Source: Acutalibacteraceae bacterium
GTDB taxonomy: Bacteria > Bacillota > Clostridia > Oscillospirales > Acutalibacteraceae
Reading direction: 5' to 3'
Length of the DNA: 64,000 nt
NCBI GenBank assembly: GCA_045612205.1
Contig: JAZKYQ010000081.1
Location: 206-64,205 of the forward strand
Shown here: in pieces, positions 19,605 to 49,045 of the stretch
How the letters are laid out: every line of letters begins with the position of its first letter
Position numbering within the stretch: position 1 is the stretch's first letter
Program-made: the position numbers and the translations under genes
The notes under the pieces: model-generated
Told to the model about the DNA's origin: nothing
What the model saw: only the letters and a program-made list of their open reading frames with translations
The model's database searches: none

Positions 19605-19688
19605 TCAACATCGAATACTTTTATAGTGTTAATAGTGAAATAAGTTAAAACAGATTTATACTCTACTTTTATTTTAATGGGAGGTTTT

Positions 19689-23280: not shown

Positions 23281-24056
23281 TTGCTATAGCAATAGATGAT
23301 GAACAGCTGATGCTTTATGCACTTGAAAAAGCAATAAAGGCATCAGAGGATATAGAAGAAGTTGCAGGCTTTTCAAATTGCGACGAGGCATTGGACTGGC
23401 TTGAAATCAATACTCCTGATGTGGCATTTCTTGATATTAATATGCGTGGCATCAACGGTATCGCATTGGCGGAAAAAATTACATCGATTTATCCCGATTG
23501 CAAAATAGTTTTCTGCACAGGTTATGAGGAATATGCTGTTTCAGCCTTTAAAATTCACGCTTCGGGTTATCTTCTCAAGCCTGTTTCAGCCGAGGATGTG
23601 CAAAAGGAAATTGATGTTATCAAGGGCAGAAAAATAGAAAAAGGCATCCTTAAGGCAAAATGCTTCGGTAATTTTGACGTTTCCTGCGGCGGTGAAAAGC
23701 TTACCTTCAAAAGAACAAAAAGCAAGGAAATGCTTGCTTATCTCATTGACCGTAACGGAGCAGATGTTTCCTCAAAGGAGATAGCCGCTGTGCTCTGGGA
23801 GGACGGCACAAAGGAAAACAACAGAAACTACTTTCATCAGCTTCTTTTAGATGTGCGTCATACTCTTGAAAAAGCAGGTGCAGATGATGTGCTGAAAAAG
23901 AACGGATATCTTTATTCCGTTGATACAAGCAGAATTTCCTGTGACTATTATTCTTACCTTAAAACGGGTCAGCCTGAATTTCAGGGTGAATATATGACAC
24001 AATACAGCTGGGCTGATGAAACCTGTGGCTTGCTCTGGAGTAAAAACAATAAATAA
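23277..24056 (+). CDS. response regulator: REC domain + OmpR/SARP-type winged-helix DNA-binding domain
   Basis: 259 aa. REC with IAIDDE and phospho-acceptor context VAFLDINM. C-terminal CFGNFDVSCGGEKLTFKRTKSKEMLAYLIDRNG..VSSKEIAAVLWED...YFHQLLLDVRHTL resembles SARP/OmpR wHTH. Confidence 0.85.
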   Translation: MIAIAIDDEQLMLYALEKAIKASEDIEEVAGFSNCDEALDWLEINTPDVAFLDINMRGINGIALAEKITSIYPDCKIVFCTGYEEYAVSAFKIHASGYLLKPVSAEDVQKEIDVIKGRKIEKGILKAKCFGNFDVSCGGEKLTFKRTKSKEMLAYLIDRNGADVSSKEIAAVLWEDGTKENNRNYFHQLLLDVRHTLEKAGADDVLKKNGYLYSVDTSRISCDYYSYLKTGQPEFQGEYMTQYSWADETCGLLWSKNNK

Positions 24057-24173: not shown

Positions 24174-27100
24174 ATGAAAAAAGTAATAAGTATTTTATTG
24201 ACAATCATTATGCTCTTTACAATGGTTCCTGTAAGCGTTTTTGCTGCAGAGGAAATCACAGTTAATCTTGTGAGCTTTATGCGCGGAGATGTTAATGATC
24301 TTCGTTCAAGTGAGCTTTTAGAGGTACAGGTAGAGGGCTACGACGGAAACCCGAGAGAGCTCACATATAAGTGGACAAGCTCACTCGGTACATACCTTTA
24401 CATTTATAACTCACATAATATGTATGGTATCAACAACACATATGGTGAAATGGAAATCTATAACACCGATAAAAAAATCAGCCGCAACAGCAATGTTGAA
24501 GCAGACAGAGCCGGCGATAAGACTTTATCAAAAGCAGGCTTTATGTGGGCTTCTGTTTATGGTGCTTATGAATATTCCAATGTCAGTGCTTCTACTGCAC
24601 TTAAGGGCACTGTAAAAGTCGAAGTTTATGATAGTAAGGGTACTAAGCTTGGTGAAGATAGTTTCTCAAGCTTCAAGGTACACAATCTTGACGGAGACCT
24701 CGACAATGTTGTTATCGGTCTTTTCGAGGGCGACAGAATGAACGCACTTGATCTTCTCGGTCAGAGTGGTATTGTTCATATCACATGTGAACAGAGTAAA
24801 GTTTCAAGTGCTGAGATTCTTGAAGGCGATGAACACATAAAAATTGAAACTGAGAAAAAGGATAGTAATACTTACAACTACTATATTAAAGGTATAAAAG
24901 CCGGAGATAACAGCACTAATGGTGATGCTCAGCTTGAGATTAATATAAAAAAGACATCCTGTAAGTTCCACTATAACACAAGCGGTACTGCTGAGCCAAT
25001 AGTATATGTTTTCAAAAAGCCCAAGACATCAACCACCACAACAACTCTTACTCTTGTTGATGATATTGACAGCCGCTGTGAATATTTTATCAACGGTAAC
25101 AAGGGTGAAAAGCAGGATGATGGCACAATCATCTTCACAGGTCTTGATCCCAACACCAAATATACAGTAGAAGTTCGTGCCGAATACGAAGATAAGGGCA
25201 CAACCAAGTATGTTTACGGTTATGTAGAAGACACAACAAAGCCTGTTTATAAGGCTACAGTCAAGACATATCTCGACGACACAATTACTGATATCTCATC
25301 AATTCACGGTGAAGAAGTAACTCTTTACATCCGTAAGGATCTCGAGGATGCAGAATATATTGTGCTTACAAAGAACGGCACAGGTACATATGAAGCAATC
25401 GTTGAAAACGGTACATATTATCCCTGGCACTACGAAAACGGCACATACCATCAGGCAAGAAAATATGAGCTCATTATCCAGAATGCTAACGCAGAGCTTT
25501 ACCTTCACCACTACAGTGTGAAATATGACACAAACGGCGGTGCATTCAAGTCAGGCGAAGATGTTGGCACAGAGATTTACTCAAGTATGACAGCAGTAAA
25601 TGCTACTTCAAATGTTCCCGTACGTGAAGGCTATGTATTTGCAGGCTGGGAATATAACGGTAAGGTTATCACTTCAGGCAAGCAGATCACTTCATCAATC
25701 TCCGCTCCCATTACACTCAAGGCAAAATGGGAAAAGGCTGTTAACGTAATAATCAACGTTACTATTGACCACAAAACTGTGGACGGCTTTGATCCTAATC
25801 CTTCAAGAACAGAGCTTGATGTTGATTTCCTTGAAATGACTGCAAACTCACCCGCATTTGTTGAAACAGGCGACAAGCTTTATTTCAGAGAAGATAAGGT
25901 TACCGATGAAAACGGTAGTGCAAAAGCTTATACTTACTCAATTGAAAACAATGTTTCAAAATATACTGCAACAGATTATACTTACACAGGTCTTCTTGAA
26001 TCCTCAACCTTCGGTGTTGCTTTAAGTAAGTCAGGCTATGATGTAGGTACAATTGAAAAGAAACAGGATAAACTCGGTAATTGGGTTATCAATATTCCTC
26101 TTACCTATAATCCCGACGACTTTGATCTTGAATTCAGCGTTGAAATGGATGATGATGTTCCCAAGGAGCTTTATCCTGATGCTGTAATCGTTAAGGTTGC
26201 ATACTGGAATACAGATACAAATGAATGGAAAATCATTTCTCAGCAGGAAAATGCAGGCGCTGTTGTAAAGCCCGGTGTACGTGTTGACATTGATCCTAAA
26301 ACAGGCGAAGGCTCGGGCTCATATCCCGTATGGAGATATGACGGTAAAAACAACCCCTACGGCTACCGTGCAGTTGTTACCGGTTTCATTTATGACGGTT
26401 CAACAATTGTTGTACCCACAGAAAAGGATCATACAAAGGATGACAACACTGTTATCGTTACATATACTGACGGTAACTACACCGCTACAATGAGCGATAT
26501 CGCTGACGGTAAAAAGTTCAGCACATCTCTTAACGGTGCATATTACAATGATAAAACAAATGCTCAGCAGGGTACACTTCACGGTGTAATTTCAGTTGAA
26601 AAGTATGATGTTACCTTTGATGCTCAGGGTGGAACAAACGCTGAGGGCAAGGATGCTGCAAAGCAGGTTTATCGTGTTCCTGAGCTTGACGGATATAAGC
26701 CCACAATGGAAAATCACAATTTCCTTGGCTGGTACAAGGATAAGGAATGCACAATTCCTGCAGTTGAAAATGAACTTCTCACCGAAGATATTACTCTTTA
26801 TGCAAAGTGGGATAAGATTCTCACAGGTAACGTAAGAGTTGCAGGTTCATATGTTCAGAACGGCGAGATAGTAGATGTATGGGCAGTTGACCGTGCTGAC
26901 AGTGCAGTTGTAGTTCTTCAGGAAATCACTGAAACCGGTGTTTATAGCATTGACAGACAGACTGTTAATATTGTATGGCCCATGGCTGAAATGGTTTACG
27001 GTATTTCAGAGGAATATAAGTTTACAGGTCTTGATCCTGCAAAGCAGTACAGAACTGAAGTTTATGTTCTTAACTACGGCACAACCTATCAGAACTCAAC

Positions 27101-29600
27101 AACAGTAGTTGATGACGATGATGAATACGCAGACGATTACAACTCAACAGACTATGAAGCAATCTATCCCGAAAACAGCAAGTTAGAAACATTTGTAAAT
27201 GCTTATCTTTCATTTGAGCCTGCTTCATATTTCCAGCCCGTTGAGGTTGATGCAACCCTCATCGGTGCAAACTTAAGACCCGAGGATACACTCGTTCAGG
27301 TATGGTACAAGGCAACAGGCACAAGCAACGCATACCAGGTAATCAGCCAGCACACAGTTGTTCCCTACGGTATTGAGGTAGGTATGGGTGCTGACGGTAT
27401 GGATGACGGCTACTACGGCTATGTGGTATGGAACAGCTTGTATAACGGTAATCTTTATGACTATCAGGCACATCTTGATAAGATTGAAGGTCAAGCAGTT
27501 TCAGAGTGGCCCGTATCAGTGGTTTACGGTGAACCCTCACGTTACAGTCCTCTTAATAACGCTGCAACAGGTGTGCTTCAGGTTAAGCTTGTTCCTAACC
27601 GTTACGGTATTATCTATAACGAAAATTATGCTCCCGAAGGTGTAGAAGTAGTTTCTTACGGAACTCACATCTGGAGCTATGACACAGTTATTGATTACGT
27701 TCCCGTTCGTGAAGGCTATATCTTCCAGGGTTGGTATGCTAACCCCGAATGCACAGGCGATAAGGTTACAGAGATTGATGAAACTGTTGCTCAGGATACA
27801 AACCTTTACGCTAAATGGGAAGCAGAAACCGGACATGAGCTTACAGTAAACTATGTTGAAAAGTTTACAGATGCAGTGCTTGAAACTGAAATCAAGGATT
27901 ATTCATTTGACGATGTTGTAACTGCAGAAAGCCTTAAGAAGGATTTCAAGGGCTTCACATACGACAGCGCAAGTGCTGAAAGTGTAAAGATCACTAAAGA
28001 CAAAAACGAAATCACTCTTTACTATGTAAGAAACAACTACGGCTATACTGTAAACTATCTTGAGGAAGGCACAAACAAGGTTCTTGCAACTTCAAAAACT
28101 GCAGAAGCACCATTTGCTTCATTTGTAACTGAAACAGCAATCGCAATTAAAGGCTATGTTCTTACAGGTTACACCAGTCAGACAGTTACAATTACTATCG
28201 ATACAGATGCAACAAAGAACGTTATCAACTTCTACTATGCAGTTGACAACCTCGGTGGCGGCGAAGGCGGTAACGAAGGCGACGGCACACCCGACAAGTA
28301 TCAGAAGAAGGTAATCTTCAAGGTTGTCAACGGTATCTGGTCAAACGGTACAACTGAAGACATCATTCAGTATGTAACTCTTGTTAAGGACGGTAAGCTT
28401 GATGCCGAAGGTTCAGCTGAACTTAAGGCTCCCAACGGCATGATTGCAAACACAGGCTACAAGAACGGCTCATGGGATAAGGAAATTCCCTCAACCGTAA
28501 GCGGCACAGAAACACTTACATTCACCTACAGCTTTGTAAGAAGCACAACTCCGGTTGAACCGCTTGATGATGTAAGATATATTGTTGAGCATTACAAAGA
28601 AAATGCTGACGGCACATACAGCCTCGTTGAAGAGGATACAGAAATCCTCGTCGGCAAAATCGGTGAAAAGGTTACTGCAACAGAAAAGGCCTATGATGGC
28701 TACTGCCTGAATGAAAGCAAGTCAGAAGCAACTTCAAGCGGTGTGCTTAAGGCTGTCGGCAACGAAAGTGATATCGTTACACTCAAGCTTTATTATGATA
28801 TTGATAAGCTTGGAGGTGGCGAAAACGGCGACGAAGGCGACGGCACTCCCGACAAGTATCAGAAGAAGGTAATCTTCAAGGTTGTAAACGGCACATGGGC
28901 TGACGGTACAACAGCTGATAAGGTTGTTTACCTTGATCTTATGAAGGACGGCAAGTATGCACTTGACGGTACAGCTGCTCTTACAGCTCCCACAGGTATG
29001 AAGGCAAATGAAGGCTTTGAAGGCGGAGCTTGGGATATCACTCCTCCCTCTGCTGTAAGCGGTACAAACGTAGAGACATACACCTATACCTTTACTGAAA
29101 CAGCTCCGGAAGAACCTGATACTCCCGACAACCCTGACAATCCCGATACTCCTGACGAACCCGATGTTCCTGATACTCCTGTTAATCCCGACAGTCCCGA
29201 GGGAGACGGTGAAGGCGATAACGGTTCAGGTAACCTCGGCTTCAAGAATTATATTCTCTTCGGTAAGACTGACGGTATCGGCTGGTATCAGGTTTCCAAG
29301 GATGGCGGACAGCCCTATGATGTCGTATTCGGTAATTCAACATATGAGGTTGAGCCCGGTACAGAGATTATCGTCAAGGTCGGAGATCTTATGGGCGATG
29401 CATTTACCTTCTATGTAAACGGTGATGCAATTGAGCCTGACGAAAACGGAAATCTCGTTATCACAGTTGACGGATATATGCTCATCGGTGCACTCGGCTA
29501 TAAGGTTAATGTGCCTGATGTTGAAGAATCACTCAACTGGTTCCAGAAGCTTATCAAGGCAATCAAGGATTTCTTTGCAAAGCTTTTCGGTAAAAAATAA
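24174..29600 (+). CDS. giant secreted adhesin-like protein (Listeria-Bacteroides/InlB-B-type repeats, MucBP-like units, Pro/Asp linker, C-terminal amphipathic helix)
   Basis: 1808 aa with a signal peptide (LLTIIMLFTMVPVSVFA). Flg_new-type units: YSVKYDTNGGAF...VREGYVFAGWEY, YDVTFDAQGG...NHNFLGWYKDKEC, YGIIYNENY...VREGYIFQGWYANPEC. MucBP-like units: LTVNYVEKF.., YTVNYLEEG.., VRYIVEHYKEN... No LPXTG motif. Confidence 0.8.
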   Translation: MKKVISILLTIIMLFTMVPVSVFAAEEITVNLVSFMRGDVNDLRSSELLEVQVEGYDGNPRELTYKWTSSLGTYLYIYNSHNMYGINNTYGEMEIYNTDKKISRNSNVEADRAGDKTLSKAGFMWASVYGAYEYSNVSASTALKGTVKVEVYDSKGTKLGEDSFSSFKVHNLDGDLDNVVIGLFEGDRMNALDLLGQSGIVHITCEQSKVSSAEILEGDEHIKIETEKKDSNTYNYYIKGIKAGDNSTNGDAQLEINIKKTSCKFHYNTSGTAEPIVYVFKKPKTSTTTTTLTLVDDIDSRCEYFINGNKGEKQDDGTIIFTGLDPNTKYTVEVRAEYEDKGTTKYVYGYVEDTTKPVYKATVKTYLDDTITDISSIHGEEVTLYIRKDLEDAEYIVLTKNGTGTYEAIVENGTYYPWHYENGTYHQARKYELIIQNANAELYLHHYSVKYDTNGGAFKSGEDVGTEIYSSMTAVNATSNVPVREGYVFAGWEYNGKVITSGKQITSSISAPITLKAKWEKAVNVIINVTIDHKTVDGFDPNPSRTELDVDFLEMTANSPAFVETGDKLYFREDKVTDENGSAKAYTYSIENNVSKYTATDYTYTGLLESSTFGVALSKSGYDVGTIEKKQDKLGNWVINIPLTYNPDDFDLEFSVEMDDDVPKELYPDAVIVKVAYWNTDTNEWKIISQQENAGAVVKPGVRVDIDPKTGEGSGSYPVWRYDGKNNPYGYRAVVTGFIYDGSTIVVPTEKDHTKDDNTVIVTYTDGNYTATMSDIADGKKFSTSLNGAYYNDKTNAQQGTLHGVISVEKYDVTFDAQGGTNAEGKDAAKQVYRVPELDGYKPTMENHNFLGWYKDKECTIPAVENELLTEDITLYAKWDKILTGNVRVAGSYVQNGEIVDVWAVDRADSAVVVLQEITETGVYSIDRQTVNIVWPMAEMVYGISEEYKFTGLDPAKQYRTEVYVLNYGTTYQNSTTVVDDDDEYADDYNSTDYEAIYPENSKLETFVNAYLSFEPASYFQPVEVDATLIGANLRPEDTLVQVWYKATGTSNAYQVISQHTVVPYGIEVGMGADGMDDGYYGYVVWNSLYNGNLYDYQAHLDKIEGQAVSEWPVSVVYGEPSRYSPLNNAATGVLQVKLVPNRYGIIYNENYAPEGVEVVSYGTHIWSYDTVIDYVPVREGYIFQGWYANPECTGDKVTEIDETVAQDTNLYAKWEAETGHELTVNYVEKFTDAVLETEIKDYSFDDVVTAESLKKDFKGFTYDSASAESVKITKDKNEITLYYVRNNYGYTVNYLEEGTNKVLATSKTAEAPFASFVTETAIAIKGYVLTGYTSQTVTITIDTDATKNVINFYYAVDNLGGGEGGNEGDGTPDKYQKKVIFKVVNGIWSNGTTEDIIQYVTLVKDGKLDAEGSAELKAPNGMIANTGYKNGSWDKEIPSTVSGTETLTFTYSFVRSTTPVEPLDDVRYIVEHYKENADGTYSLVEEDTEILVGKIGEKVTATEKAYDGYCLNESKSEATSSGVLKAVGNESDIVTLKLYYDIDKLGGGENGDEGDGTPDKYQKKVIFKVVNGTWADGTTADKVVYLDLMKDGKYALDGTAALTAPTGMKANEGFEGGAWDITPPSAVSGTNVETYTYTFTETAPEEPDTPDNPDNPDTPDEPDVPDTPVNPDSPEGDGEGDNGSGNLGFKNYILFGKTDGIGWYQVSKDGGQPYDVVFGNSTYEVEPGTEIIVKVGDLMGDAFTFYVNGDAIEPDENGNLVITVDGYMLIGALGYKVNVPDVEESLNWFQKLIKAIKDFFAKLFGKK
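28251..29100 (+). repeat. internal duplication (two ~290-bp homologous segments, 558 bp apart)
   Basis: GGCGACGGCAC(A/T)CCCGACAAGTATCAGAAGAAGGTAATCTTCAAGGTTGT occurs at about 28279 and about 28837. Protein level: GDGTPDKYQKKVIFKVVNG(I/T)W..GTT twice. Confidence 0.8.
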
Positions 29601-29608
29601 TTGATCAT

Positions 29609-29644
29609 AAACCATCGGTGTGAACCGGTGGTTTATTGTTTCTT
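29609..29644 (+). terminator. terminator after the adhesin-like gene
   Basis: AAACCATCGG / CCGGTGGTTT stem (one G-U), 6-nt loop, then ATTGTTTCTT. Confidence 0.65.
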
Positions 29645-29800: not shown

Positions 29801-30763
29801 ATGAGTAAGAAAAATAAATTTTTTGCCGATGACGGATGGGCAATGTGGGTTGACGGTGACGATGTCAGCACAATCTATCTGAACAACTGGCTCAACCCTA
29901 AGGGAAAAAGCTACGTGGATGTAGCTATACATATAAGAGGAATCAATGAAACCAAGTCACTTAATATATATTTTCCTTTTAATGTTGACAAAAACGAAAT
30001 TGAGGATGTTTCACTCAAATTCAATGATGAGAATCTTTCAAGAGCAATTTTCAGCAGTATGTGTGTGATCGATTACAAGAAAAACAAGGCTACATCGGAA
30101 ATTGCATACAACGGAAAAACCGTGGATATAGTTCATATATCGGCTCTTGAATATACTGTGGAGCCTGTTTCGTCAGGTGCGTTGTTAAAGGTGCCTTTTG
30201 CGGAGCTGTTTGAATATCTCGACAATGACGAGGTTTATTTTATGTTCCGTGTTCCTCACAAATCCATAACAAAGGTTTTCAGACAGCGTAACAAGGTCGG
30301 CAGCTTTTTCAATAAGACCCGTGACCTTCTTATGTCACCGATTATTTCCGAAAGCTACGGATATTCAGTAAGAATCAATGAGGGCAGACTTCTTCCCAGG
30401 GAGGTCAACAGTATCGGCGCCTTCCACAGACAGAAGCTGAAAAAGGCCGTTGTAACAATTTCAGTTGCCGAGGATTATGAAATCAGTGATGTGTCCTGTT
30501 ACCGCATCAGAAGGCTTGAAGAAGAGCTGTATGAGAATTTCCTTCCTGCAGGCTTTGACGGTGAGGACGTGGTTACTTATCAATGGCAGCAAACCCGTGA
30601 AACCAATTTAAGGGGTCACTTTAATTTTTACCTCAGCATATCCCGTAACGCAATCAGCAAGGGAAGTCTTATTATATACCTGATTATCATTGTTTTTCTT
30701 GATGTTGCAGGCGGTATGACATGGGATCTTATACAGCTTCTGTATAAATTGATTTTTGGTTAA
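29801..30763 (+). CDS. hypothetical protein with C-terminal TM tail anchor
   Basis: 320-aa ORF, first gene after operator site c. Only one hydrophobic helix, at the extreme C-terminus (LIIYLIIIVFLDVAGGMTWDLI). No family recognised. Confidence 0.6.
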   Translation: MSKKNKFFADDGWAMWVDGDDVSTIYLNNWLNPKGKSYVDVAIHIRGINETKSLNIYFPFNVDKNEIEDVSLKFNDENLSRAIFSSMCVIDYKKNKATSEIAYNGKTVDIVHISALEYTVEPVSSGALLKVPFAELFEYLDNDEVYFMFRVPHKSITKVFRQRNKVGSFFNKTRDLLMSPIISESYGYSVRINEGRLLPREVNSIGAFHRQKLKKAVVTISVAEDYEISDVSCYRIRRLEEELYENFLPAGFDGEDVVTYQWQQTRETNLRGHFNFYLSISRNAISKGSLIIYLIIIVFLDVAGGMTWDLIQLLYKLIFG

Positions 30764-30775
30764 AGGAGGAAACAG

Positions 30776-33610
30776 ATGAAGCTTTTAGTTCCTGTTTTTT
30801 TAAACTGCATTTTTGTAGTAATGTTTTATCTTCTTGATAAAAAAACAAAGTTCAAGAATCTGAACTTGATATCAAAGCAAATAATGATAGGCCTTGTTTT
30901 CGGCGGCTTGTCCGCCTTTGCATCAGGTTATGGTGTTGAGATTCTCGGTACTGTGGCAAATGTCCGTGATGCCGCACCTCTTTGCGCAGGCCTTATTTTC
31001 GGCGGCCCTGCAGGTGTTATTTCAGGTGTTATAGGCGGCTTGTACCGTTTCTTTTCCGTTTACTGGGGCGGTGGAGAATACACAAGAATTGCCTGTACCC
31101 TTTCAACAATGCTTGCCGGCTTTATTTCAGCGGCACTGAGAAAATATATGTTTGACAATAAAAAGCCCACCTGGAGCTACGGTGTATTTATCACCGTTGT
31201 GTGTGAGGTTCTTCATATGCTGATGATTTTCTTTACAAATATGAGCGATTCATCATATGCATTTGAATTTGTAAAGGGTGCCACAATTCCCATGATTATC
31301 GGCAACTCAGCAGCTGTAGGGATTTCTCTTATTGTTGTTTCACTGCTTAATCACGAGGAAAGAAAGCTCGGCAAAACAAATGAACGCATTTCACAGACCT
31401 TTCAGCGAAAGCTTCTGGTGCTTATTGTTGTAGCCTGTGTAGCTACCAGTACCTATACATATATCCTTCAGAACGGAATGGCTGAAATTGAAACAAAAGA
31501 GATTTTCACATCAGCAATGAACGACGTGATTACTGACGTAAGAGGTAAATCCGATGAGAAGCTGCTGGAAATTACAGAAAAAATACGTGCTGAATATGAA
31601 AAGAATAAAGATGTTTCTTTTGACAGCCTCAAGGAAAAATACAATGTTACGGAAATCAACGTTGTTGCTTCTGACGGCACTATTGTTGCTTCTGCCGATA
31701 AAGAAATTATCGGTAAATTCAATATGAACAGCACCGAACAGTCAAAGGAATTTATGGTGCTGACCGGTGAAAAAAGCGAGTATGTGCAGATGTACAGTCC
31801 CCAGGGCATAGACGGTGTAACAATGAGAAAATATGCAGGGGTCAGCCTTTCTGAAGGCGGATTTATTCAGGTCGGCTACGATGCTGTTCAATTCCATGAT
31901 ATGCTTAACGATTTTGTTGTTGACGTGACAAAAAACCGCCATGTAGGAAGCAATGGCTTTGTTGCTGTCTGTGATGAAAAATTAAATCTTGTAACCCATA
32001 CCGGCAGAAACGGAAAGCATATTTCGACTATAGGTATAACTCCCGTTGAGGAAATGCTTCAGGGAAAATCTGCAAGTCAGCTTTATAAGACAAATATTAT
32101 CAATGATGAAACAGATTTCAGTGAAGAATATATTTATGTTTTCACCTTTGTTGAGGGCTACTGCATAATTGCCGCAATGTCTTCAGCTGAAGCTATGCTG
32201 ATGCGTGATGCATCACTTTATACAAGCATATTTATGCTTGTGCTGATTTTCGCAGCTTTGTTTATTTTTATTTATTTCCTTATCAAAAAGGTAATCATCA
32301 ACAATCTGCAGAAAATCAACGGTACTCTTTCAGAAATTACAGGCGGCAACCTCAATGTGAAGGTCGATGTCCGTTCAAATGCAGAGTTTTCGTCTCTTTC
32401 TGATGACATCAACTCAACCGTATCAACTCTTAAAAGATACATCGGTGAGGCTGCAGCAAGAATTGACAAGGAGCTCGAATATGCAAAGCAGATTCAGCTT
32501 TCGGCTCTTCCCTCGGATTTCCCCGATACAGAAAAGTATTCCATATATGCACAGATGATAGCCGCTAAAGAGGTAGGCGGAGATTTCTATGATTTCTACT
32601 CTCTTGACGATAACACAGTACTTTTCCTTGCCGCTGACGTATCGGGTAAGGGAATTCCTGCCGCTATGTTTATGATGACGGCAAAAACAATTATCCGCGG
32701 TCTTGCTGAAAGAGGACTTTCCGTTGATGAAATTTTCACTCTTGCCAACGAAAAGCTTTGTGAAAATAACGAGTCGGGTATGTTTGTAACCGCTTGGATG
32801 GGTAAGCTTGACCTTCCTACAGGCAAGCTCAGCTTCGCAAATGCAGGACATAATCCTCCGATTATTGTTCATGCAAACGGTGAATGCGAATATCTCAAGA
32901 GCCGTACAGGCTTTGTGCTTGCCGGTATGGAGGGTATGAGATACCGTTCAAATGAAATGACACTCAATAAGGGCGACAGAATTTTCCTTTATACCGACGG
33001 TGTAACAGAAGCCACGGATGAAAATGAGGCTCTTTACGGTGAAGACAGACTTATGTCTTACATCGATAAAAACAAAGAACTGAAGGCTGAAGCATTGCTT
33101 TCGGGTCTTAAAGAGGATATCGACCTTTTTGCAGGTGATGCTCCTCAGTTTGATGATATTACAATGCTTATTTTTGACTACAAAAAGAAAGAAGGTGCTG
33201 CTATGAAAGAAAAAGTCTTTCCTGCCGAAAAAGGCGCTTTGCCCGAGGTAATGGATTTTACAGAGGAATGTCTCCAAAGCTTCGACTGCCCGATGAAAAG
33301 CCTGATGGCAATCTCCATTGCTGTGGAAGAGATCTTCGTCAATATTGCAAGCTATGCCTACGGTGAGGGCACAGGTGAAGCGGCTCTTTCCTTCTGCTTT
33401 GACGAAAGCGAAAGAATGATGACTCTTGTTGTAAGTGATGAAGGCGTACCCTTCAATCCTCTTCAGAGAGAAGAGCCTGATATCACTCTTTCAGCAGCAG
33501 AGAGAGACATCGGCGGTCTTGGTATTTTTATCACAAAGAAAACCATGGACACGGTTTCTTACAGATACGAAAACGGCAGAAACATTCTCACTATGACTAA
33601 AAAAATATAA
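30776..33610 (+). CDS. multidomain sensor: 5TMR-LYT-like membrane domain + extracytoplasmic (Cache-like) domain + HAMP + PP2C/SpoIIE phosphatase + RsbW/SpoIIAB-like HATPase kinase
   Basis: 944 aa. N-terminus NVRDAAPLCAGLIFGGPAGVISGVIGGLYRF (LytS-type 5TM). HAMP-like INNLQKINGTLSEITGGNLNVKVDV. PP2C motifs GGDFYDF, AADVSGKGIPAAMFMM, NAGHNPP, LYTDGVTEA, DDITML. The C-terminal ~135 aa (from internal ATG 33203) is a paralog of the stand-alone kinase at 47446..47853. Confidence 0.85.
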   Translation: MKLLVPVFLNCIFVVMFYLLDKKTKFKNLNLISKQIMIGLVFGGLSAFASGYGVEILGTVANVRDAAPLCAGLIFGGPAGVISGVIGGLYRFFSVYWGGGEYTRIACTLSTMLAGFISAALRKYMFDNKKPTWSYGVFITVVCEVLHMLMIFFTNMSDSSYAFEFVKGATIPMIIGNSAAVGISLIVVSLLNHEERKLGKTNERISQTFQRKLLVLIVVACVATSTYTYILQNGMAEIETKEIFTSAMNDVITDVRGKSDEKLLEITEKIRAEYEKNKDVSFDSLKEKYNVTEINVVASDGTIVASADKEIIGKFNMNSTEQSKEFMVLTGEKSEYVQMYSPQGIDGVTMRKYAGVSLSEGGFIQVGYDAVQFHDMLNDFVVDVTKNRHVGSNGFVAVCDEKLNLVTHTGRNGKHISTIGITPVEEMLQGKSASQLYKTNIINDETDFSEEYIYVFTFVEGYCIIAAMSSAEAMLMRDASLYTSIFMLVLIFAALFIFIYFLIKKVIINNLQKINGTLSEITGGNLNVKVDVRSNAEFSSLSDDINSTVSTLKRYIGEAAARIDKELEYAKQIQLSALPSDFPDTEKYSIYAQMIAAKEVGGDFYDFYSLDDNTVLFLAADVSGKGIPAAMFMMTAKTIIRGLAERGLSVDEIFTLANEKLCENNESGMFVTAWMGKLDLPTGKLSFANAGHNPPIIVHANGECEYLKSRTGFVLAGMEGMRYRSNEMTLNKGDRIFLYTDGVTEATDENEALYGEDRLMSYIDKNKELKAEALLSGLKEDIDLFAGDAPQFDDITMLIFDYKKKEGAAMKEKVFPAEKGALPEVMDFTEECLQSFDCPMKSLMAISIAVEEIFVNIASYAYGEGTGEAALSFCFDESERMMTLVVSDEGVPFNPLQREEPDITLSAAERDIGGLGIFITKKTMDTVSYRYENGRNILTMTKKI

Positions 33611-33622
33611 AGGAGACTTCTT

Positions 33623-33919
33623 ATGAATATCAATATCGAAAAAACAAACGGTGTAACTCTTATGGCTCTTGAAGGCAGACTTGACACAACAACAGCACCC
33701 GAGCTTGAAAAGGCTATCAATGGTGAAGGCGCAGCTCTTAAGAGCTTAGTGCTTGATTTCAAGGGCGTTGACTACATTTCAAGTGCAGGTCTTCGAGTGC
33801 TTCTTACAGCACAGAAAAAGATGAACGCTCAGGGACATATGGAGCTTGTGGGTGTAAGCGAAGCAGTTATGGACATATTCGAAATGACAGGCTTTGCAGA
33901 CATTCTGGAGATTAAATGA
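33623..33919 (+). CDS. STAS-domain anti-sigma-factor antagonist (SpoIIAA/RsbV-like)
   Basis: 98 aa. LEGRLDTTTAPELEKAI and DYISSAGLRVLL (conserved phosphorylatable Ser context); FEMTGF. Confidence 0.85.
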   Translation: MNINIEKTNGVTLMALEGRLDTTTAPELEKAINGEGAALKSLVLDFKGVDYISSAGLRVLLTAQKKMNAQGHMELVGVSEAVMDIFEMTGFADILEIK

Positions 33920-34485
33920 TGGATAAGGTAACAAAAGCAATTGAATTTGCCGCAAAGGCTCACGACGGCATGGAAAGAAAAAAGGATAAAACACCTTATA
34001 TTCTTCATCCTCTTGAAGCAGCAGTAATTGTCGGCTCTATGACTGAGGATAAAGATGTCATCTGTGCAGCAGTGCTTCACGATGTAGTGGAGGATACTCC
34101 GATTACCATTGAAGAAATTGAAGAAAATTTCGGAGCCCGTGTAAGAGCACTTGTTGAATCGGAAACAGAGGACAAGCGTGCTGATTTGCCGCCGGAGGAC
34201 ACCTGGAGAATAAGAAAAGAGGAATCTCTTGAAGAGCTTGCAAACTGTGGCAATACCGATGTTCTTATGCTCTGGATTGGTGACAAGCTGTCCAATATGC
34301 GTTCTTTTTACAGAATATGGAGAGCCGAGGGTGACAGCATGTGGCAGTCCTTTAATCAGAAGGACCCTGCACAGCAGAAATGGTATTACAGCACTATATC
34401 CGAGCTTACTTCCTCACTCAAGGATTTTGCAGCGTGGCAGGAATATAACGAGCTTGTAAAAATTGTTTTCGGAAAGGTTAAATAA
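33916..34485 (+). CDS. HD-domain protein of the RelA/SpoT hydrolase type (small alarmone hydrolase-like)
   Basis: 189 aa. AIEFAAKAHDGMERKKDKTPYILHPLEAAVIV and AAVLHDVVEDTPITIEEIEENFGARVRALVESET match HD_4/(p)ppGpp-hydrolase motifs. The start overlaps the STAS stop (ATGA). Confidence 0.75.
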   Translation: MMDKVTKAIEFAAKAHDGMERKKDKTPYILHPLEAAVIVGSMTEDKDVICAAVLHDVVEDTPITIEEIEENFGARVRALVESETEDKRADLPPEDTWRIRKEESLEELANCGNTDVLMLWIGDKLSNMRSFYRIWRAEGDSMWQSFNQKDPAQQKWYYSTISELTSSLKDFAAWQEYNELVKIVFGKVK

Positions 34486-34486
34486 A

Positions 34487-35653
34487 ATGAATAAAATTGA
34501 ATTCAGAACAGATAAAGATATTTTATATATAAGCCTTGAGGGTAGGATTGATGCCTCAAATGCAGCTGATGTTGAAAGTGAAATCAAGGAAATAAGAAAA
34601 GCGCACCAGGGTATGCATACTGTTCTTGATGCGGACAGACTTGAGTATATTTCCAGTGCAGGTCTTCGTATAATGCTTCGCTTGAGAAAGGAAGAGGCGA
34701 AGCTTGCGATAATCAACGTTTCACCTGAGGTTTACAGCGTTTTTGAAATGACAGGCTTTACTGAAATGATTACCATTGAAAAAACATATCGCAGAATAGA
34801 TGTTTCTGACTGTGAGTTTATTGCAAAGGGTGCTAACGGTGCAGTTTACCTCTATGACGATGAAACTATAGTAAAGCAGTACTTTAACAGAGATGCTCTT
34901 CCTGAAATTATGCAGGAACGTGAAAACTCAAGAAAAGCCTTTGTTCTCGGTGTCAACACAGCAATTCCTTACGGCATTGTCCGTATCGGAGACGGCTACG
35001 GAAGCCTTACAGAGCTTCTCAATGCTACCTCGGTAACAAAGCTCATAAGAGCAAATACTGAGGATTTATCACAGAGCGTTGCTTACTTTATTGACACAAT
35101 CAAAGAGGTGCATGCAATTGAAACCGAGGAGGGGGAACTTCCTGATTTCAAAAAGTGGGTTCTTGAGTGGGTAGATTTTCTTGCAGATTACCTTGATGAA
35201 GCACACGCTCAGAAAATGCGTACACTTATTGAGGGTATTCCTGACAGTAACAACATTATTCACGGTGACTACCATACAAACAATGTAATGGTACAGAACG
35301 GTGAGCCTATCCTTATTGATATGGATACACTTGCGGTAGGTCATCCGATTCTTGAGTTCGGCTCAATGTATAATGCTTATGTAAGCTTTGGTGAGCTTGA
35401 TAAAGCCGGTATCGAGGACTTTTTCGGCTTTGATATTGCTACTGCTAAGCGTTTCTGGCGTCTTTCTCTTGCAAGATACCTCGGCACTGATGATGAAAAT
35501 GCAATTGATGATGCCGAAAACAAAGCAAAAATTATCGGTTATATGCGACTTCTCCGCCGTTGTCTGAGAAGAGATTCTGATCAAGTAACAGTAAATCACT
35601 ATAAATCAAGACTTACAGAAGCTCTTGACAAGGTTGAAACATTGGTGTTCTGA
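34487..35653 (+). CDS. STAS domain fused to an APH/choline-kinase-like phosphotransferase domain
   Basis: Track ORF starts at 34463, but ATG 34487 lies 1 nt after the upstream stop. The N-terminus (LEGRIDASNAADVESEI...EYISSAGLRIML...FEMTGF) is a STAS paralog. The C-terminus has Brenner/APH motifs IIHGDYHTNNVMV and ILIDMDT. Confidence 0.75.
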   Translation: MNKIEFRTDKDILYISLEGRIDASNAADVESEIKEIRKAHQGMHTVLDADRLEYISSAGLRIMLRLRKEEAKLAIINVSPEVYSVFEMTGFTEMITIEKTYRRIDVSDCEFIAKGANGAVYLYDDETIVKQYFNRDALPEIMQERENSRKAFVLGVNTAIPYGIVRIGDGYGSLTELLNATSVTKLIRANTEDLSQSVAYFIDTIKEVHAIETEEGELPDFKKWVLEWVDFLADYLDEAHAQKMRTLIEGIPDSNNIIHGDYHTNNVMVQNGEPILIDMDTLAVGHPILEFGSMYNAYVSFGELDKAGIEDFFGFDIATAKRFWRLSLARYLGTDDENAIDDAENKAKIIGYMRLLRRCLRRDSDQVTVNHYKSRLTEALDKVETLVF

Positions 35654-35654
35654 T

Positions 35655-36221
35655 ATGAAAAATATACTTTTTATAAATGCTTGCTGCAGAGACAGCTCTC
35701 GCACAAATGAATTGGCACAGTGCTTGCTTGACAACCTGAACGGTCAGGTCAAAGCAGTAAATCTCTATGAGGAAAATCTGAAACCCATTGATGCAGAATT
35801 GCTTTTTAAAAGAGACAGTTTACTCAAAGAAGATAAAACAGATGATGAAATGTTTACTTTGGCAAAGCAGTTCTCTTTAGCTGATGCAATAGTTATTGCT
35901 GCACCTTATTGGGATCTTATGTTTCCCTCAATACTCAAGGTTTATCTTGAAAACATAACCGTATGCGGTGTAACCTTCCGTTACTCAGAAAAAGGAATTC
36001 CTCAGTCTCTTTGTAAAGCGGAAAATCTTTATTATGTCACAACATCAGGAGGCTTTATCGGTGAAAACAATTTCGGATTTGATTATGTAAAGGCTCTTGC
36101 TACGGGCTTTTTCGGAATCGGTAATGTAAGCTGCTTTTCAGCCGAAGGACTTGATATTTACGGCGCTGATGTCGGCACAATTATGCAAAAAGCAAAAGAA
36201 AATATTAAAAGAGGGATATGA
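35655..36221 (+). CDS. flavodoxin-fold NAD(P)H-dependent oxidoreductase (FMN reductase/azoreductase-like)
   Basis: Track ORF starts at 35625, but ATG 35655 lies 1 nt after the upstream stop. MKNILFINACCRDSSRT and ADAIVIAAPYWDLMFPSILKVYLENI resemble the Flavodoxin_2/FMN_red families. Confidence 0.6.
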   Translation: MKNILFINACCRDSSRTNELAQCLLDNLNGQVKAVNLYEENLKPIDAELLFKRDSLLKEDKTDDEMFTLAKQFSLADAIVIAAPYWDLMFPSILKVYLENITVCGVTFRYSEKGIPQSLCKAENLYYVTTSGGFIGENNFGFDYVKALATGFFGIGNVSCFSAEGLDIYGADVGTIMQKAKENIKRGI

Positions 36222-36304: not shown

Positions 36305-36820
36305 ATGAAAAAGAAATTAGGCTTTATAGGTATCGGCGTCATTGTCGTACTGGTTGCTGCTATTATTTCAGGAGCATTTACAGGTGGTTTTCAGTCTGTT
36401 CCCCAACCTGAAATCAAAGAGGGTGAGTTTGATTTCACACTTACTTATGGGGTAGACGGTGAAATCAAAAAAATTGAAGGTACTTATGTATGTGAATTTG
36501 ACGGCGTGTCAAGAGCAATTGACGGTGTAAGCCGTGACTGGACAGGCTACATAAAGGATCACGATGATTTTACTGATTATGAAATCAAAACAACTGATAA
36601 GGGCGTAATTATGGTAAGTCTTGATATCTGTCCTGAGTTCTTTATGTCTGATCCGAATTATGATAATATAGTGTCCGGCAAGGATAATACCAAGCCTGAG
36701 CCTTATCTTTATATCAAATCAGGAGAGCCTTCAGATGAAGCTTTCTTGGATTATACAGGCGATGATGTGAAAATCATCAGCTTTGAATATGACCAACCGA
36801 TTGAAAATACATACAGATAA
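36305..36820 (+). CDS. hypothetical N-terminally anchored exported protein
   Basis: 171 aa with one N-terminal TM/signal-anchor helix (FIGIGVIVVLVAAIISGAF). No family recognised. Confidence 0.6.
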   Translation: MKKKLGFIGIGVIVVLVAAIISGAFTGGFQSVPQPEIKEGEFDFTLTYGVDGEIKKIEGTYVCEFDGVSRAIDGVSRDWTGYIKDHDDFTDYEIKTTDKGVIMVSLDICPEFFMSDPNYDNIVSGKDNTKPEPYLYIKSGEPSDEAFLDYTGDDVKIISFEYDQPIENTYR

Positions 36821-36832
36821 AGGAAGTTTAAA

Positions 36833-37507
36833 ATGATAAAAAACAGAACGGCACAATTGATTTATCAGACAATTTATTGCACGCTCGGATTTGTGGGTAT
36901 TGTTTCCTGCACAGGAATATTTGATGATATAACCCAATTCCGTTGGGATTTCTATGTGCACTTTACAAATATAAGCAATTTCTTTTGTATCGGAATAATG
37001 CTTGCCGCGCTTATTCAGACAGCAAAGAAAAAAGAGGACAGCTTTGTTAAAACAGCTCCTCTTCTTAAGTTTATCGGTATGCTGGGTATATTGCTCACAT
37101 TCCTTGTGTTCAATATTATGCTTGCCGGCAACCGTGACCCTCAGCTTAACTGGAGAATCGGCAGCCTTACCTTCCATGTAGTTCTTCCTATTATGTATGT
37201 TGCAGATTGGTTCCTTTTTTATGAACGCAGAAAATGTAAGTGGTATTATCCTCTTGCCTCAATTGCTTTTCCGCTTGCATACCTTATCTTTATTTTCATT
37301 CAGGCGGCAATTATGAAGTTCGATACTTCAATACTTATTCCAGGCACCGAGACACCTCTCATTTATCCCTATTTCTTTGTTAACCTTGAAACCCAGGGAG
37401 TAGGCGGTGTAGCAAAGTGGGTTGTTATTCTTCTTGCGGCATTTGTTGTGGTAGGCTTTGTATTTTTCGGACTTGACAAGCTGGGTAAGAAAAAGTCCAT
37501 GAAATGA
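36833..37507 (+). CDS. polytopic integral membrane protein (possibly Pr6Pr-family-like)
   Basis: 224 aa with about 6 hydrophobic helices. FRWDFYVHFTNISNFF resembles my memory of the Pr6Pr family, but this is a weak call. Confidence 0.55.
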   Translation: MIKNRTAQLIYQTIYCTLGFVGIVSCTGIFDDITQFRWDFYVHFTNISNFFCIGIMLAALIQTAKKKEDSFVKTAPLLKFIGMLGILLTFLVFNIMLAGNRDPQLNWRIGSLTFHVVLPIMYVADWFLFYERRKCKWYYPLASIAFPLAYLIFIFIQAAIMKFDTSILIPGTETPLIYPYFFVNLETQGVGGVAKWVVILLAAFVVVGFVFFGLDKLGKKKSMK

Positions 37508-37544
37508 TAAGCTTAACTGTGTCAGCTTCAGGGAGGAAATTAAA

Positions 37545-38768
37545 ATGAATAAAATTGTTAAACGAGCTCTTATTGTAATTGCGGTGATATTTGTGATTAT
37601 TGCGGCTGTGCTTACACTTAAGCTTGCAGTAATTGATTACACGGCGGATAAGCACTCACAAGGTGCTGTTACTGACGCTTCTTCAGACAAGGTTGTATAT
37701 GAGGATGCTGTCACCACAGGCTTTAAGCGTGAGCATGTTATGGCTGACTGGAAAACCCTCAACCAATCATATATACCGAATTATCTTTCGGGTTCTGCGG
37801 TACCTATGGACGGCACAAACGGTAATCCAAATTATCTTGTGCCCGGTCAGACTGAGGATATGATACCTCAAGGCCTGACTTACCTGCCCCAAAAGGATTG
37901 GATTCTTATTTCATCCTACGATAAAAGTGAGAAAAATCCAAGTGTAGTTTTTGCTCTTGACAGAGAAACAGGTAATTTTGTGGCTCAGTTCAATCTTTAC
38001 ACTCCCGACGGTGAGCCCTGGATGTGTCACGCAGGAGGTATAGCAGTTTCGGATTATAACCTCTATGTTACAAGCGACAGCGGTGTTGCTTATTTCCCTC
38101 TTAGTGACCTTGATGTTGAAAAGGGTACAGTTAAGGATATTGCATACAAGGAAACTATTAATTTCGGTCAGTTGGGCATAACCTATTCAGCTTACATCAG
38201 CGCTGCTGACGGTATGCTCTGGGCTGGTAACTTCTATTCAAACTCACCTTTGAGTCCTCCGCTTGCAAAAATGGGCTTTATAGGTAAAGACTGGGTTTGG
38301 AAGCCCAACGATGAATATTTTAACGCCATTTTAGGCTACAAGCTTTCAGGTGACTCATCTGAAGCAGAATGGGAAGCTTTAAAGGCGATCAAGGACAACG
38401 CAAGCAATGTTGTAAACGTGGATAACACAATGGACTGCATTCAGGGCATTTCCTTCAGAAAGCTTGACGACAACACCTATAAAATGTATCTTTCAAGAAC
38501 CGTGGACGGAAGTATCGGTGCCGCAGTTGCAGCTGCAACAGTTGAATTTACTGAAAATATCGTTTATGTAAATGAAAGCAACTTCAAGCTTCACGATAAC
38601 CTTCCCGGCGCAGAGGGTATTGTGTTTATCGGCGATGAATTATATATTCTTTATGAATCAGGTGCATTGAGTAACTTCGATGAAATTGTCAATAAGCTTA
38701 CCTGGAATCAGTACATCAAGGATTGCACAGATGTTATCTGGAAGATAAGTGAAAGCGCTTTGGTGTAA
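37545..38768 (+). CDS. hypothetical N-terminally anchored extracytoplasmic protein
   Basis: 407 aa with an N-terminal TM helix (ALIVIAVIFVIIAAVLTL). The remainder is beta-rich with repeated hydrophobic/Gly patterns. No family recognised. Confidence 0.6.
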   Translation: MNKIVKRALIVIAVIFVIIAAVLTLKLAVIDYTADKHSQGAVTDASSDKVVYEDAVTTGFKREHVMADWKTLNQSYIPNYLSGSAVPMDGTNGNPNYLVPGQTEDMIPQGLTYLPQKDWILISSYDKSEKNPSVVFALDRETGNFVAQFNLYTPDGEPWMCHAGGIAVSDYNLYVTSDSGVAYFPLSDLDVEKGTVKDIAYKETINFGQLGITYSAYISAADGMLWAGNFYSNSPLSPPLAKMGFIGKDWVWKPNDEYFNAILGYKLSGDSSEAEWEALKAIKDNASNVVNVDNTMDCIQGISFRKLDDNTYKMYLSRTVDGSIGAAVAAATVEFTENIVYVNESNFKLHDNLPGAEGIVFIGDELYILYESGALSNFDEIVNKLTWNQYIKDCTDVIWKISESALV

Positions 38769-47431: not shown

Positions 47432-47445
47432 ATCAGTTAACTCCT

Positions 47446-48819: not shown

Positions 48820-49016
48820 GTTTTTGCCTCTCCTATACATTGAAAAATTTCGGAAATTCTGAGTAAAATATACTCATTACTAAGAGTATCAAGCTCAGAC
48901 AATATCACTTATAAGAAATGTTGTTAATCGCAATCAGAGCTTAAATGAGATGAACGTCATAGCAAGTACCATATAATGCGAATCAAGCAATATGCAGAGC
49001 ATAATTTACTATAAAA

Positions 49017-49045
49017 ATTTTATCATAGAGCAATGGTAATGTCAA
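49017..49045 (-). promoter_or_regulatory. candidate sigma-A promoter of the CDF/kinase/STAS/NRPS operon
   Basis: On the minus strand: TTGACA (49045..49040), 17 nt, TAAAAT (49022..49017). This implies a leader of roughly 190 nt. Confidence 0.45.

Follow-up and report, generated by a model that had tools for sequence, protein, structure and literature searches.

A partner-switching operon without a sigma factor, and its putative enzyme outputs, in an Acutalibacteraceae bacterium

A six-gene operon with partner-switch components and two enzymes

We analyzed an operon in a 64,000-nucleotide stretch of DNA from an Acutalibacteraceae bacterium (GenBank assembly GCA_045612205.1, contig JAZKYQ010000081.1, positions 206 to 64,205), referred to here as the window. 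Six tightly packed genes, p1 to p6, occupy positions 29801 to 36221 of the forward strand. Genes p2 to p5 encode the parts of a partner switch together with two enzymes: a membrane sensor in which a PP2C phosphatase and an RsbW-like serine kinase share one chain, a free STAS protein, a RelA/SpoT-type HD protein, and a second STAS domain fused to a kinase of the aminoglycoside phosphotransferase (APH) fold. No sigma factor gene is among the six. The coordinates are collected in Table 1.

A sequence-only reading of this DNA, made by a model without database searches, had described a tightly packed operon of six genes with these domains. The open reading frame (ORF) list, Pfam and NCBIfam agree with that description, with the ORFs at the positions it had given and with only a HAMP linker remaining below threshold. 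Gaps of 12 nt separate p1 from p2 and p2 from p3, and p3 overlaps p4 by 4 nt (ATGA). Single nucleotides separate p4 from p5 and p5 from p6, given ATG starts at 34487 and 35655. These starts match the gene calls in an 89%-identical relative (locus L081); the TTG starts of the longest ORFs, at 34463 for p5 and 35625 for p6, would overlap the preceding gene.

Table 1. Features of the operon and of its upstream boundary, in window coordinates.
Feature	Position	Strand	Evidence
p2, 944-aa membrane sensor with PP2C phosphatase and RsbW-like serine kinase	30776-33610	+	Pfam, NCBIfam
p2 residues 31-188, 5TM-5TMR_LYT (LytS-type receptor)	30866-31339	+	PF07694, E 3.6e-27
p2 residues ~232-484, probable extracytoplasmic double-Cache-like ligand-binding domain	31469-32227	+	hydropathy, AlphaFold, Foldseek
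p2 residues 506-553, HAMP-like linker	32291-32434	+	PF00672, E 0.0027, sub-threshold
p2 residues 611-802, PP2C/SpoIIE serine phosphatase	32606-33181	+	PF07228, E 6e-53
p2 residues 815-942, RsbW/SpoIIAB-like GHKL kinase (HATPase_c_2)	33218-33601	+	PF13581, E 3e-25
p3, free 98-aa STAS protein	33623-33919	+	PF01740, E 2e-19
p4, 189-aa hydrolase-only RelA/SpoT-type HD protein (small alarmone hydrolase family)	33916-34485	+	PF13328, E 6e-20
p5, STAS fused to APH-fold kinase	34487-35653	+	Pfam, NCBIfam
p1, 320 aa, function unknown	29801-30763	+	no family match
p6, flavodoxin-fold NAD(P)H-dependent FMN reductase-like	35655-36221	+	Flavodoxin_2 PF02525, E 4e-22
Terminator-like hairpin	29607-29636	+	13-pair stem then T-rich tail, 3' of 1808-aa surface protein gene

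A membrane sensor with phosphatase and kinase on one chain

The p2 protein joins a LytS-type 5TM receptor, a large extracytoplasmic domain, a PP2C/SpoIIE phosphatase and an RsbW-like kinase, as had been proposed; the HAMP domain of that proposal reaches only 18.4 bits against a cutoff of 25. Hydropathy predicts seven membrane segments, two of which (residues 213-231 and 485-503) flank a loop of approximately 250 residues. An AlphaFold model of the loop (pLDDT 75) matches in Foldseek the double-Cache domains of Tlp3, Mlp24, PctA and DctB, and also the periplasmic domain of RsbU from Chlamydia. The E values of these matches are 1e-8 to 1e-5 and their TM-scores are low. The modest confidence of the model follows from an alignment of six sequences. 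Based on the modeled fold, we assign the loop with moderate confidence as a double-Cache-like ligand-binding domain.

Both catalytic domains are extensively conserved at their active sites. Among 53 homologs, each of the metal-binding phosphatase aspartates D603, D606, D621, D741, D793 and D794 is at least 95% conserved, and the same holds among 77 homologs for the kinase residues E852, N856, D888, G890 and G913-G916 of the N and G boxes. By sequence, the closest solved relatives of p2 are Rv1364c (3ke6, E 3e-16), an RssB-type PP2C (3es2/3eq2) and RsbW (6m36). The kinase falls far short of the RsbW and SpoIIAB equivalog models (35 bits compared with a cutoff of 145), and the match of p2 to the SiaA model is weak (62 bits, cutoff 700). 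Metagenomes are rich in p2 homologs that are more than 83% identical, and the few named ones are from Acutalibacteraceae or Clostridia metagenome-assembled genomes (MAGs).

A free STAS protein and a STAS-APH fusion

The p3 protein passes TIGR00377, the model for the anti-sigma-factor-antagonist superfamily (77.9 bits, cutoff 53.45), and scores far below the cutoff of the SpoIIAA equivalog model. Its predicted phospho-acceptor is Ser54 (codon 33782-33784) in the motif YISSAGLR, which presumably aligns with Ser58 of SpoIIAA. Both S53 and S54 are conserved to at least 95% across 67 free STAS proteins of related loci. Together with the Pfam match, this confirms the earlier identification of p3 as a STAS antagonist with a conserved serine.

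The p5 protein has 388 aa if translation begins with the ATG at 34487 and 396 aa if it begins with the TTG at 34463. In the numbering of the longer form, the STAS domain spans residues 12-109 and includes Ser65, and the kinase spans residues 117-396. The Pfam APH match (PF01636) covers residues 117-314 (E 4e-17, 63.3 bits, cutoff 23.2). The kinase carries the HGDxHxxN catalytic motif (HGDYHTNN) and the IDxD metal-binding motif (IDMD), and 31 diverse homologs show no variation at S65, K138, H267, D269, N274 and D286. The fusion of a STAS domain to an APH-like kinase, first recognized from these motifs, thus stands.

AlphaFold models p5 with a pLDDT of 93.9 and a pTM of 0.83. The best fold matches of the kinase are APH(2''), APH(3') and APH(4) (Foldseek E 4e-10 to 1e-8), with which it shares fold and motifs at an identity of only 10-20%, and p5 has no close solved relative by sequence. 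The best NCBIfam match is TIGR02172 at 104.1 bits; because this lies below the curated cutoff of 228.2, p5 is a relative of that family and not a member. TIGR02172 is uncharacterized, and we found no mention or function of it in the open-access literature. Weak matches to the protein-kinase-like families RIO1, Bud32 and Kinase-PolyVal were also found, and there was no match of p5 to any resistance-family NCBIfam model. The STAS-APH family is large, with 619 clusters (50% identity) at E <=1e-30, mostly of about 390 aa and matching over the full length.

An HD protein of the small alarmone hydrolase type

The p4 protein has an HD_4 domain (residues 8-131) and no synthetase, TGS or ACT domain, and its match to TIGR00691 is limited to the N-terminal hydrolase part. 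Its best solved relatives are the stand-alone small alarmone hydrolases (SAHs) 7qoc, 4yf1 and 7qoe (E ~1e-21 to 1e-18), as well as Mesh1, and the alignment to SAH structures spans the full length. R21, H31, H55, D56, E59, D60, D123 and N127 are each at least 95% conserved among 40 homologs. We take these residues to map onto the Rel hydrolase site (Arg, His, His-Asp, Glu-Asp, Asp, Asn). The earlier assignment of p4 as a hydrolase-only RelA/SpoT-type HD protein is well supported by the domain, the structure matches and the catalytic residues. Since the active-site residues of all five domain types in p2 to p5 are conserved, these parts look catalytically competent.

The SAH class is defined in PMC3153485, and a spirochaete member, Tde-SAH of Treponema denticola, hydrolyzes (pp)pGpp as well as (p)ppApp (PMC10434055). 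The latter paper makes no mention of neighboring genes. The name Treponema is absent among the best 120 matches to the HD protein of a spirochaete locus (L005).

Conservation of the module across genomes

A scan of one genome per GTDB species gave at least 600 STAS-APH matches, of which the best 80 loci were kept. Counts out of 81 refer to these loci plus the window and to neighbors within 4 kb of the STAS-APH gene; they are lower bounds, with many loci ending at contig ends. The 80 loci are from Oscillospiraceae, Acutalibacteraceae, Lachnospiraceae, Anaerovoracaceae/Mogibacterium, Erysipelotrichaceae, Spirochaetia and Atopobiaceae. The module, consisting of PP2C, RsbW-like kinase, STAS, SAH-type HD and STAS-APH components, is widespread, occurring in hundreds of gut and rumen species.

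An RsbW-like kinase is found near STAS-APH in 64 of the 81 loci and a free STAS protein in 56, with an HD_4 protein and a PP2C phosphatase in 41 each. The HD gene lies directly 5' of STAS-APH in 39 of 42 pairs, and the two are separated by at most 20 nt or overlap in 38 of 42. Label-free clustering of all neighboring ORFs revealed no further family common to more than 10 loci. The kinase is joined to STAS-APH in a triple fusion at 24 of the 81 loci and to PP2C at 23, and the fused phosphatase-kinase seen in p2 is one of several arrangements of the module.

We also examined loci anchored on HD genes that match the spirochaete HD protein. All eight adjoin partner-switch parts, with PP2C-RsbW immediately upstream in five and STAS-APH present in four. 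At L084 and L087 a PP2C-RsbW gene is followed by HD only, and no other module parts are present. A converse type of module has APH only, with a STAS gene followed by a STAS-APH-RsbW fusion. The prediction that the gene linkage would be conserved in related genomes is therefore borne out from both anchors, STAS-APH (81 loci) and HD (8 loci).

An MscS-like gene lies inside the module in three of the eight HD-anchored loci. Genes of this kind (approximately 264 aa, MS_channel_2nd) were seen at four loci, with the HD or STAS-APH gene on one side and the STAS gene on the other (L082 6564-7355, L083 6564-7364, L089 7750-8544 and L095 5307-6101), and at L082 and L083 they replace STAS-APH. The MscS-like protein could be yet another alternative output of this switch. 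An AIM24-family gene lies 3' of the module at L085 (8379-9059, followed by a very large nonribosomal peptide synthetase (NRPS) gene) and at L088 (3956-4636).

Among the 15 closest metagenomic relatives of the HD protein (39-52% identity, full length), 7 are linked to STAS, RsbW-like or APH genes. None of about 65 more distant HD_4 genes, which include other SAHs and long RelA/SpoT proteins of 700-800 aa, has such neighbors, so that the linkage to a partner switch is a property of one HD subfamily. At three loci from soil and peat metagenomes (L106, L109 and L115), a distant SAH-like HD gene (~35% identity) adjoins a PP2C-like gene on the opposite strand, which could be a separate and weaker association.

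Domain fusions and the alarmone connection

At locus L099 we identified a 466-aa HD_4-APH fusion that has no STAS domain. A STAS gene and a RelA_SpoT synthetase-only gene lie upstream of it, and a Cache-PP2C-RsbW protein is encoded downstream. Locus L102 has the same gene set with HD and APH as separate genes. When the fusion was used as a query, 115 of the 120 clusters listed carried both PF13328 and PF01636 (48-99% identity). The HD-APH clusters, from Fibrobacter and Bacteroidales, are named 'TIGR02172 family protein', and the fusions from these groups are indeed members of that family (236-250 bits, cutoff 228.2).

The RelA_SpoT synthetase-only gene adjoins HD-APH in all five distinct neighborhoods, and RsbW, PP2C and STAS share the HD-APH operon in three of the five. 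The gene order in Bacteroidales is RsbW, dCache-HAMP-PP2C, STAS, RelA_SpoT synthetase, HD-APH. In Fibrobacter HD-APH is followed by the synthetase, and in a third lineage the synthetase is followed by HD-APH. Two HD-APH genes (L172 and L173) have no STAS gene nearby.

Taken together, the fusions STAS-APH, STAS-APH-RsbW, PP2C-RsbW and HD-APH join every component into one network, and they are direct support for a functional link among the parts. The p4 protein and the kinase of p5 are likely to work as one functional unit, given that HD and APH are parts of one protein chain in Bacteroidales and Fibrobacter. The connection to alarmones is strengthened by the position of HD-APH beside a synthetase in the same groups.

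A gene for a 488-aa RelA_SpoT-domain protein (E 3e-12) was also seen in a Solobacterium MAG (L068 1189-2655), upstream of 5TM-PP2C-RsbW, HD and STAS-APH genes. This synthetase-like gene is divergent, and the locus is the sole one in Bacillota seen with such a neighbor.

Absence of a sigma factor

The sequence-only reading found no sigma-70 protein in the window, and our searches agree. With SigF and RpoE as phmmer queries against all window ORFs of at least 50 aa, nothing was found at E <=1e-3, and Pfam scans of 38 window ORFs detected no Sigma70 domain. The same two queries did recover sigma factors in other loci. The classical partner switch has a sigma factor as its client, mostly from a gene of that very operon, and this operon has none in the window, nor is one encoded within 4 kb of the STAS-APH gene at any of the 81 loci. 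Within 10 kb only two were found in the 81 loci, both on the opposite strand. Run against all ORFs of 168 loci as well as those of the window, SigF and RpoE revealed no linked sigma factor. Nor is one adjacent in the 23 HD-anchored loci that are closest (L082-L104), where the only nearby case is a gene for an extracytoplasmic function (ECF) sigma factor 4.6 kb away in L088. A Sigma70_r2/HTH_3 pair that may be element-derived lies 8 kb upstream in L081.

Relation to known systems

The operon shares three parts with the RsbU/V/W and SpoIIE/AA/AB systems of Bacillus, namely the PP2C phosphatase, the GHKL kinase and a STAS protein that keeps the conserved phospho-serine, and its catalytic residues are intact. 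However, no sigma factor is encoded in the operon or adjoining the related loci, kinase and phosphatase reside on one membrane protein, and an enzyme carries a second, fused STAS domain.

Rv1364c of Mycobacterium tuberculosis, to which the cytoplasmic part of p2 is most closely related among solved proteins, also has PP2C and an anti-sigma-type kinase on one chain. Rv1364c is a cytoplasmic protein with a PAS sensor and a STAS domain of its own, and is linked to SigF regulation. In contrast, p2 is a membrane protein with 5TM and putative double-Cache sensors and separate STAS partners.

Partner switches without a sigma factor have been described, among them SypE/SypA of Vibrio fischeri and SiaABCD and HsbR/HsbA/HsbD of Pseudomonas (PMC8256260, PMC7647112, PMC6482189); PMC8256260 reviews further ones. 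The output of the Sia and Hsb systems is a diguanylate cyclase, and that of SypA is unknown (PMC7647112, PMC6482189, PMC8256260). The operon described here shares with them an RsbW-like kinase and an opposing PP2C phosphatase that would act on a STAS-type protein, together with a probable non-sigma output, and SypE, like p2, has kinase and phosphatase on one chain (PMC10120452). Their outputs are a cyclic-di-GMP enzyme or a polysaccharide locus, whereas here an HD protein and an APH-fold kinase are found. In addition, p2 has no receiver domain and one STAS domain is fused to the putative output. The system is best filed as a variant of partner switching with a new class of output, sigma-less switching itself being already known.

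The p4 protein is like the known SAHs (Mesh1, Lmo0812-type and Tde-SAH) in its single HD_4 domain, its length and its catalytic residues. The HD-APH fusion resembles the long Rel/SpoT proteins, in which an N-terminal HD_4 domain is joined to a second ATP-using catalytic domain, presumably placing opposing activities under one regulatory input, and HD-APH with the adjacent synthetase of Bacteroidales and Fibrobacter recreates a three-part version. In the long Rel/SpoT proteins, however, the second domain is a synthetase of the nucleotidyltransferase fold, whereas here it has the APH fold and TGS and ACT are absent. Unlike the ribosome-regulated long Rel/SpoT proteins, the module appears to be regulated by a partner switch.

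The sequence-only reading did not know this wiring as a characterized system, and we likewise found no description of it. In the open-access literature there was none of an SAH encoded with STAS, PP2C and RsbW-like genes or fused to a kinase, none of the STAS-APH and HD-APH architectures, and none of a partner switch coupled to alarmone enzymes, although such absence is not proof.

An enzyme output is the favored interpretation

Considering the conserved parts, the linkage across phyla and the fusions, we lean towards the interpretation that the operon encodes a sigma-independent partner switch whose output is a pair of enzymes acting on alarmone-type nucleotides. The sequence-only reading had proposed enzyme outputs of this kind, and had named a conserved sigma partner and a lack of conserved linkage among the outcomes that would speak against them. 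We found no sigma partner within 4 kb in the 81 loci and the linkage is conserved, which supports the enzyme-output interpretation.

In this mechanism a ligand or envelope signal would be sensed by the 5TM/double-Cache region of p2, and sensing would shift the balance between its PP2C and RsbW-like kinase domains. The balance would in turn set the phosphorylation of Ser54 in p3 and Ser65 in the STAS domain of p5. By the logic of RsbW, an unphosphorylated STAS domain would bind to the kinase domain of p2 and drive a client enzyme off it. Alternatively, it may contact the enzymes directly, as SiaC does with SiaD. By either route the activity of the SAH-type p4 and of the APH-fold kinase of p5 would be switched, and the phosphorylation state of STAS would thereby control the enzymes. 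The net effect would be signal-dependent levels of (p)ppGpp/(p)ppApp-type nucleotides rather than sigma-driven transcription initiation. The substrate of the p5 kinase may be a nucleotide; the STAS proteins, the HD protein and the synthetase are other candidates. The existence of both HD-only modules (L084 and L087) and APH-only modules suggests that either enzyme can be the client.

Several observations weigh against this interpretation. The (p)ppGpp activity of p4 is inferred from an identity of at most ~35% to characterized SAHs, and Mesh1-type enzymes hydrolyze NADPH as well. An alarmone synthetase is absent from the window and from the Bacillota-type loci other than L068. Eight of the 15 closest HD relatives from metagenomes stand alone, 17 of the 81 STAS-APH loci have no RsbW-like kinase within 4 kb, and 7 of the 81 have no partner at all, some of these ending at contig ends. 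In view of the solitary HD relatives and the STAS-APH loci without partners, neither enzyme is obligatorily tied to the switch. The host very likely encodes sigma factors with their own anti-sigma kinases elsewhere, and cross-talk with sigma factors outside the 64-kb window is possible. Which protein binds which, and the sign of the regulation, are guesses.

As an extension of this interpretation, the APH kinase and the SAH-type hydrolase could be the writer and eraser of an undescribed nucleotide messenger, which may for example be an alarmone or precursor with an extra phosphate on a ribose hydroxyl. We regard this as a speculative and rather unlikely refinement.

Alternative explanations

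The APH-fold domain could instead be a protein kinase of the YihE/SrkA or CotS type acting on STAS, HD or the synthetase, giving a cascade of two kinases in which there is no small-molecule step. Such a role would suit its fusion to a phosphorylatable STAS domain, the weak protein-kinase-like matches, and the 17 loci above, where STAS-APH often occurs with a free STAS protein in the absence of an RsbW-like kinase. However, the closest folds all belong to aminoglycoside kinases, which act on small molecules, HD-APH fusions occur with no STAS gene nearby (L172 and L173), and most loci retain an RsbW-like kinase. We consider a protein-kinase cascade unlikely, while keeping it in mind.

A conventional anti-sigma module, in which the kinase sequesters a sigma factor or other transcription regulator encoded elsewhere and the HD, STAS-APH and flavodoxin-like proteins are cargo or regulon, appears improbable. 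The kinase domain is a HATPase_c_2 relative of RsbW and SpoIIAB, p3 passes the antagonist superfamily model, and only 64 kb of the genome are visible; moreover, some known partner switches target distant sigma factors (PMC6482189). Set against this are the lack of any adjacent sigma factor in the 81 STAS-APH-anchored and 23 closest HD-anchored loci, the only nearby sigma genes being the ECF gene of L088 and the two on the opposite strand more than 4 kb away, and the equivalog scores far under the cutoffs. Fusion of the kinase to STAS-APH (24 loci) and of HD to APH (115 of the 120 listed clusters) is also not expected of passive cargo.

It is very unlikely that the APH-fold kinase serves detoxification, resistance or nutrient use (aminoglycoside, macrolide or choline), with STAS and PP2C regulating it and the HD protein unrelated. 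The Pfam APH match and the top Foldseek matches to APH(2''), APH(3') and APH(4) would fit such a role, but the identity to aminoglycoside kinases is low and there is no rationale for coupling and fusion to an SAH-type HD protein and to a synthetase across phyla. We rejected p5 as a resistance gene, as it matches no resistance model and is coupled to HD.

Least probable of all is a toxin-antitoxin or anti-phage module of the toxic small alarmone synthetase/SAH kind, with the HD protein neutralizing a toxic alarmone or tRNA pyrophosphorylation. In its favor, SAHs serve as the antitoxins of toxic small alarmone synthetases (bioRxiv 10.1101/575399), and HD-APH in Bacteroidales and Fibrobacter has a RelA_SpoT gene of the synthetase-only type directly beside it. 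Against it, a synthetase is missing from the window and from almost every Bacillota locus, the module carries Cache-type extracytoplasmic sensors, which are typical of environmental signaling, and the immediate flanks in the one relative examined (L081) are a two-component pair and metabolic genes. A known defense system was rejected, since no PADLOC model matches p1 to p6.

Operon boundaries and non-core genes

The hairpin at the 3' end of the surface-protein gene marks the upstream boundary of the operon. No leader or riboswitch 5' of p1 matched Rfam above threshold, and a weak FuFi-1 match overlies the upstream terminator. A LytS-type histidine kinase (His_kinase and HATPase_c) and a response regulator are encoded upstream of the operon (21436-24056). 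In L081 the counterpart pair (6259-8879) directly abuts p1, so that the 1808-aa surface protein gene (24174-29600) looks inserted in the window.

The sequence-only reading listed p1 and p6 among the six products of the operon; they are not conserved core components across related loci. The p1 protein has a single hydrophobic segment near the C-terminus (residues 288-306, by hydropathy) and no match in Pfam, NCBIfam or PADLOC. No homologs of p1 were found in the 80 related loci and its 90% cluster has 2 members; the close relative L081 carries a 319-aa gene at the same place. p1 is co-transcribed but lineage-specific and lies outside the module core. A p6-type gene is present in L081 and in L010, L085 and L089, upstream of the PP2C-RsbW gene in the latter three, and is absent from other loci. 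It is a recurrent accessory of a few Oscillospirales-type loci, also outside the core.

Three membrane or secreted proteins of 171, 224 and 407 aa are encoded after p6 (36305-38768). None has a Pfam match above threshold, p8 having a sub-threshold match to DUF6750 only, and L081 has genes of similar length at these positions. They may be co-transcribed with p6, as merely a weak hairpin separates them from it.

Other features of the window

A second pair of RsbW-like kinase and STAS genes was identified on the reverse strand (47135-47853). The kinase is a stand-alone protein of 135 aa (HATPase_c_2, E 1.5e-23) that is 55% identical to the p2 kinase domain, and the 98-aa STAS protein has the YISSAGLR motif and is 56% identical to p3. 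The pair lies directly upstream of a gene for a 997-aa NRPS-like protein (AMP-binding, PP-binding and Condensation domains; 44112-47105, reverse strand), and has neither a phosphatase of its own nor a sigma factor. It may share the PP2C domain of p2 or control the NRPS-like enzyme.

An ordinary S-adenosylmethionine (SAM) riboswitch (11021-11116, 76.8 bits) precedes an S-adenosylmethionine synthetase gene (11274-12458). Two adjacent paralogous genes for B12-binding radical SAM proteins (490 and 492 aa) occupy 18132-21155, at a GC content of 0.33-0.38. Stretches of low GC content (0.31-0.37) at approximately 48000-56000 and 60000-64000 contain a DUF3990 gene (50057-50542), a Mob_Pre relaxase gene (51795-52565), an HTH protein gene (52665-53945, reverse strand), a 2159-aa ORF (54889-61368) and an RHS-repeat ORF (62357-63340). 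These are probably a mobile element with polymorphic-toxin-like cargo.

Implications

How small alarmone hydrolases and synthetases are controlled post-translationally, and why bacteria keep several small alarmone enzymes, are largely open questions (bioRxiv 10.1101/575399). The module would offer a concrete answer on the control of SAHs in a large set of anaerobes from the gut, rumen and mouth, namely that a ligand-sensing phosphatase/kinase acts through STAS on an alarmone hydrolase and on an uncharacterized kinase family. Minimal versions exist that are easily cloned, consisting of PP2C-RsbW with HD or of a synthetase with HD-APH. If the interpretation is correct, the TIGR02172-type kinase family would gain its first functional context. 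Should the enzymes prove to be a writer and eraser, the level of their messenger would be set by an extracytoplasmic signal through the STAS/RsbW/PP2C switch, and the pair would represent a second stringent-type pathway that does not depend on the ribosome and is common among anaerobes of the gut and rumen. More generally, (p)ppGpp-type signaling would join sigma factors and cyclic-di-GMP enzymes as a target of partner switching.

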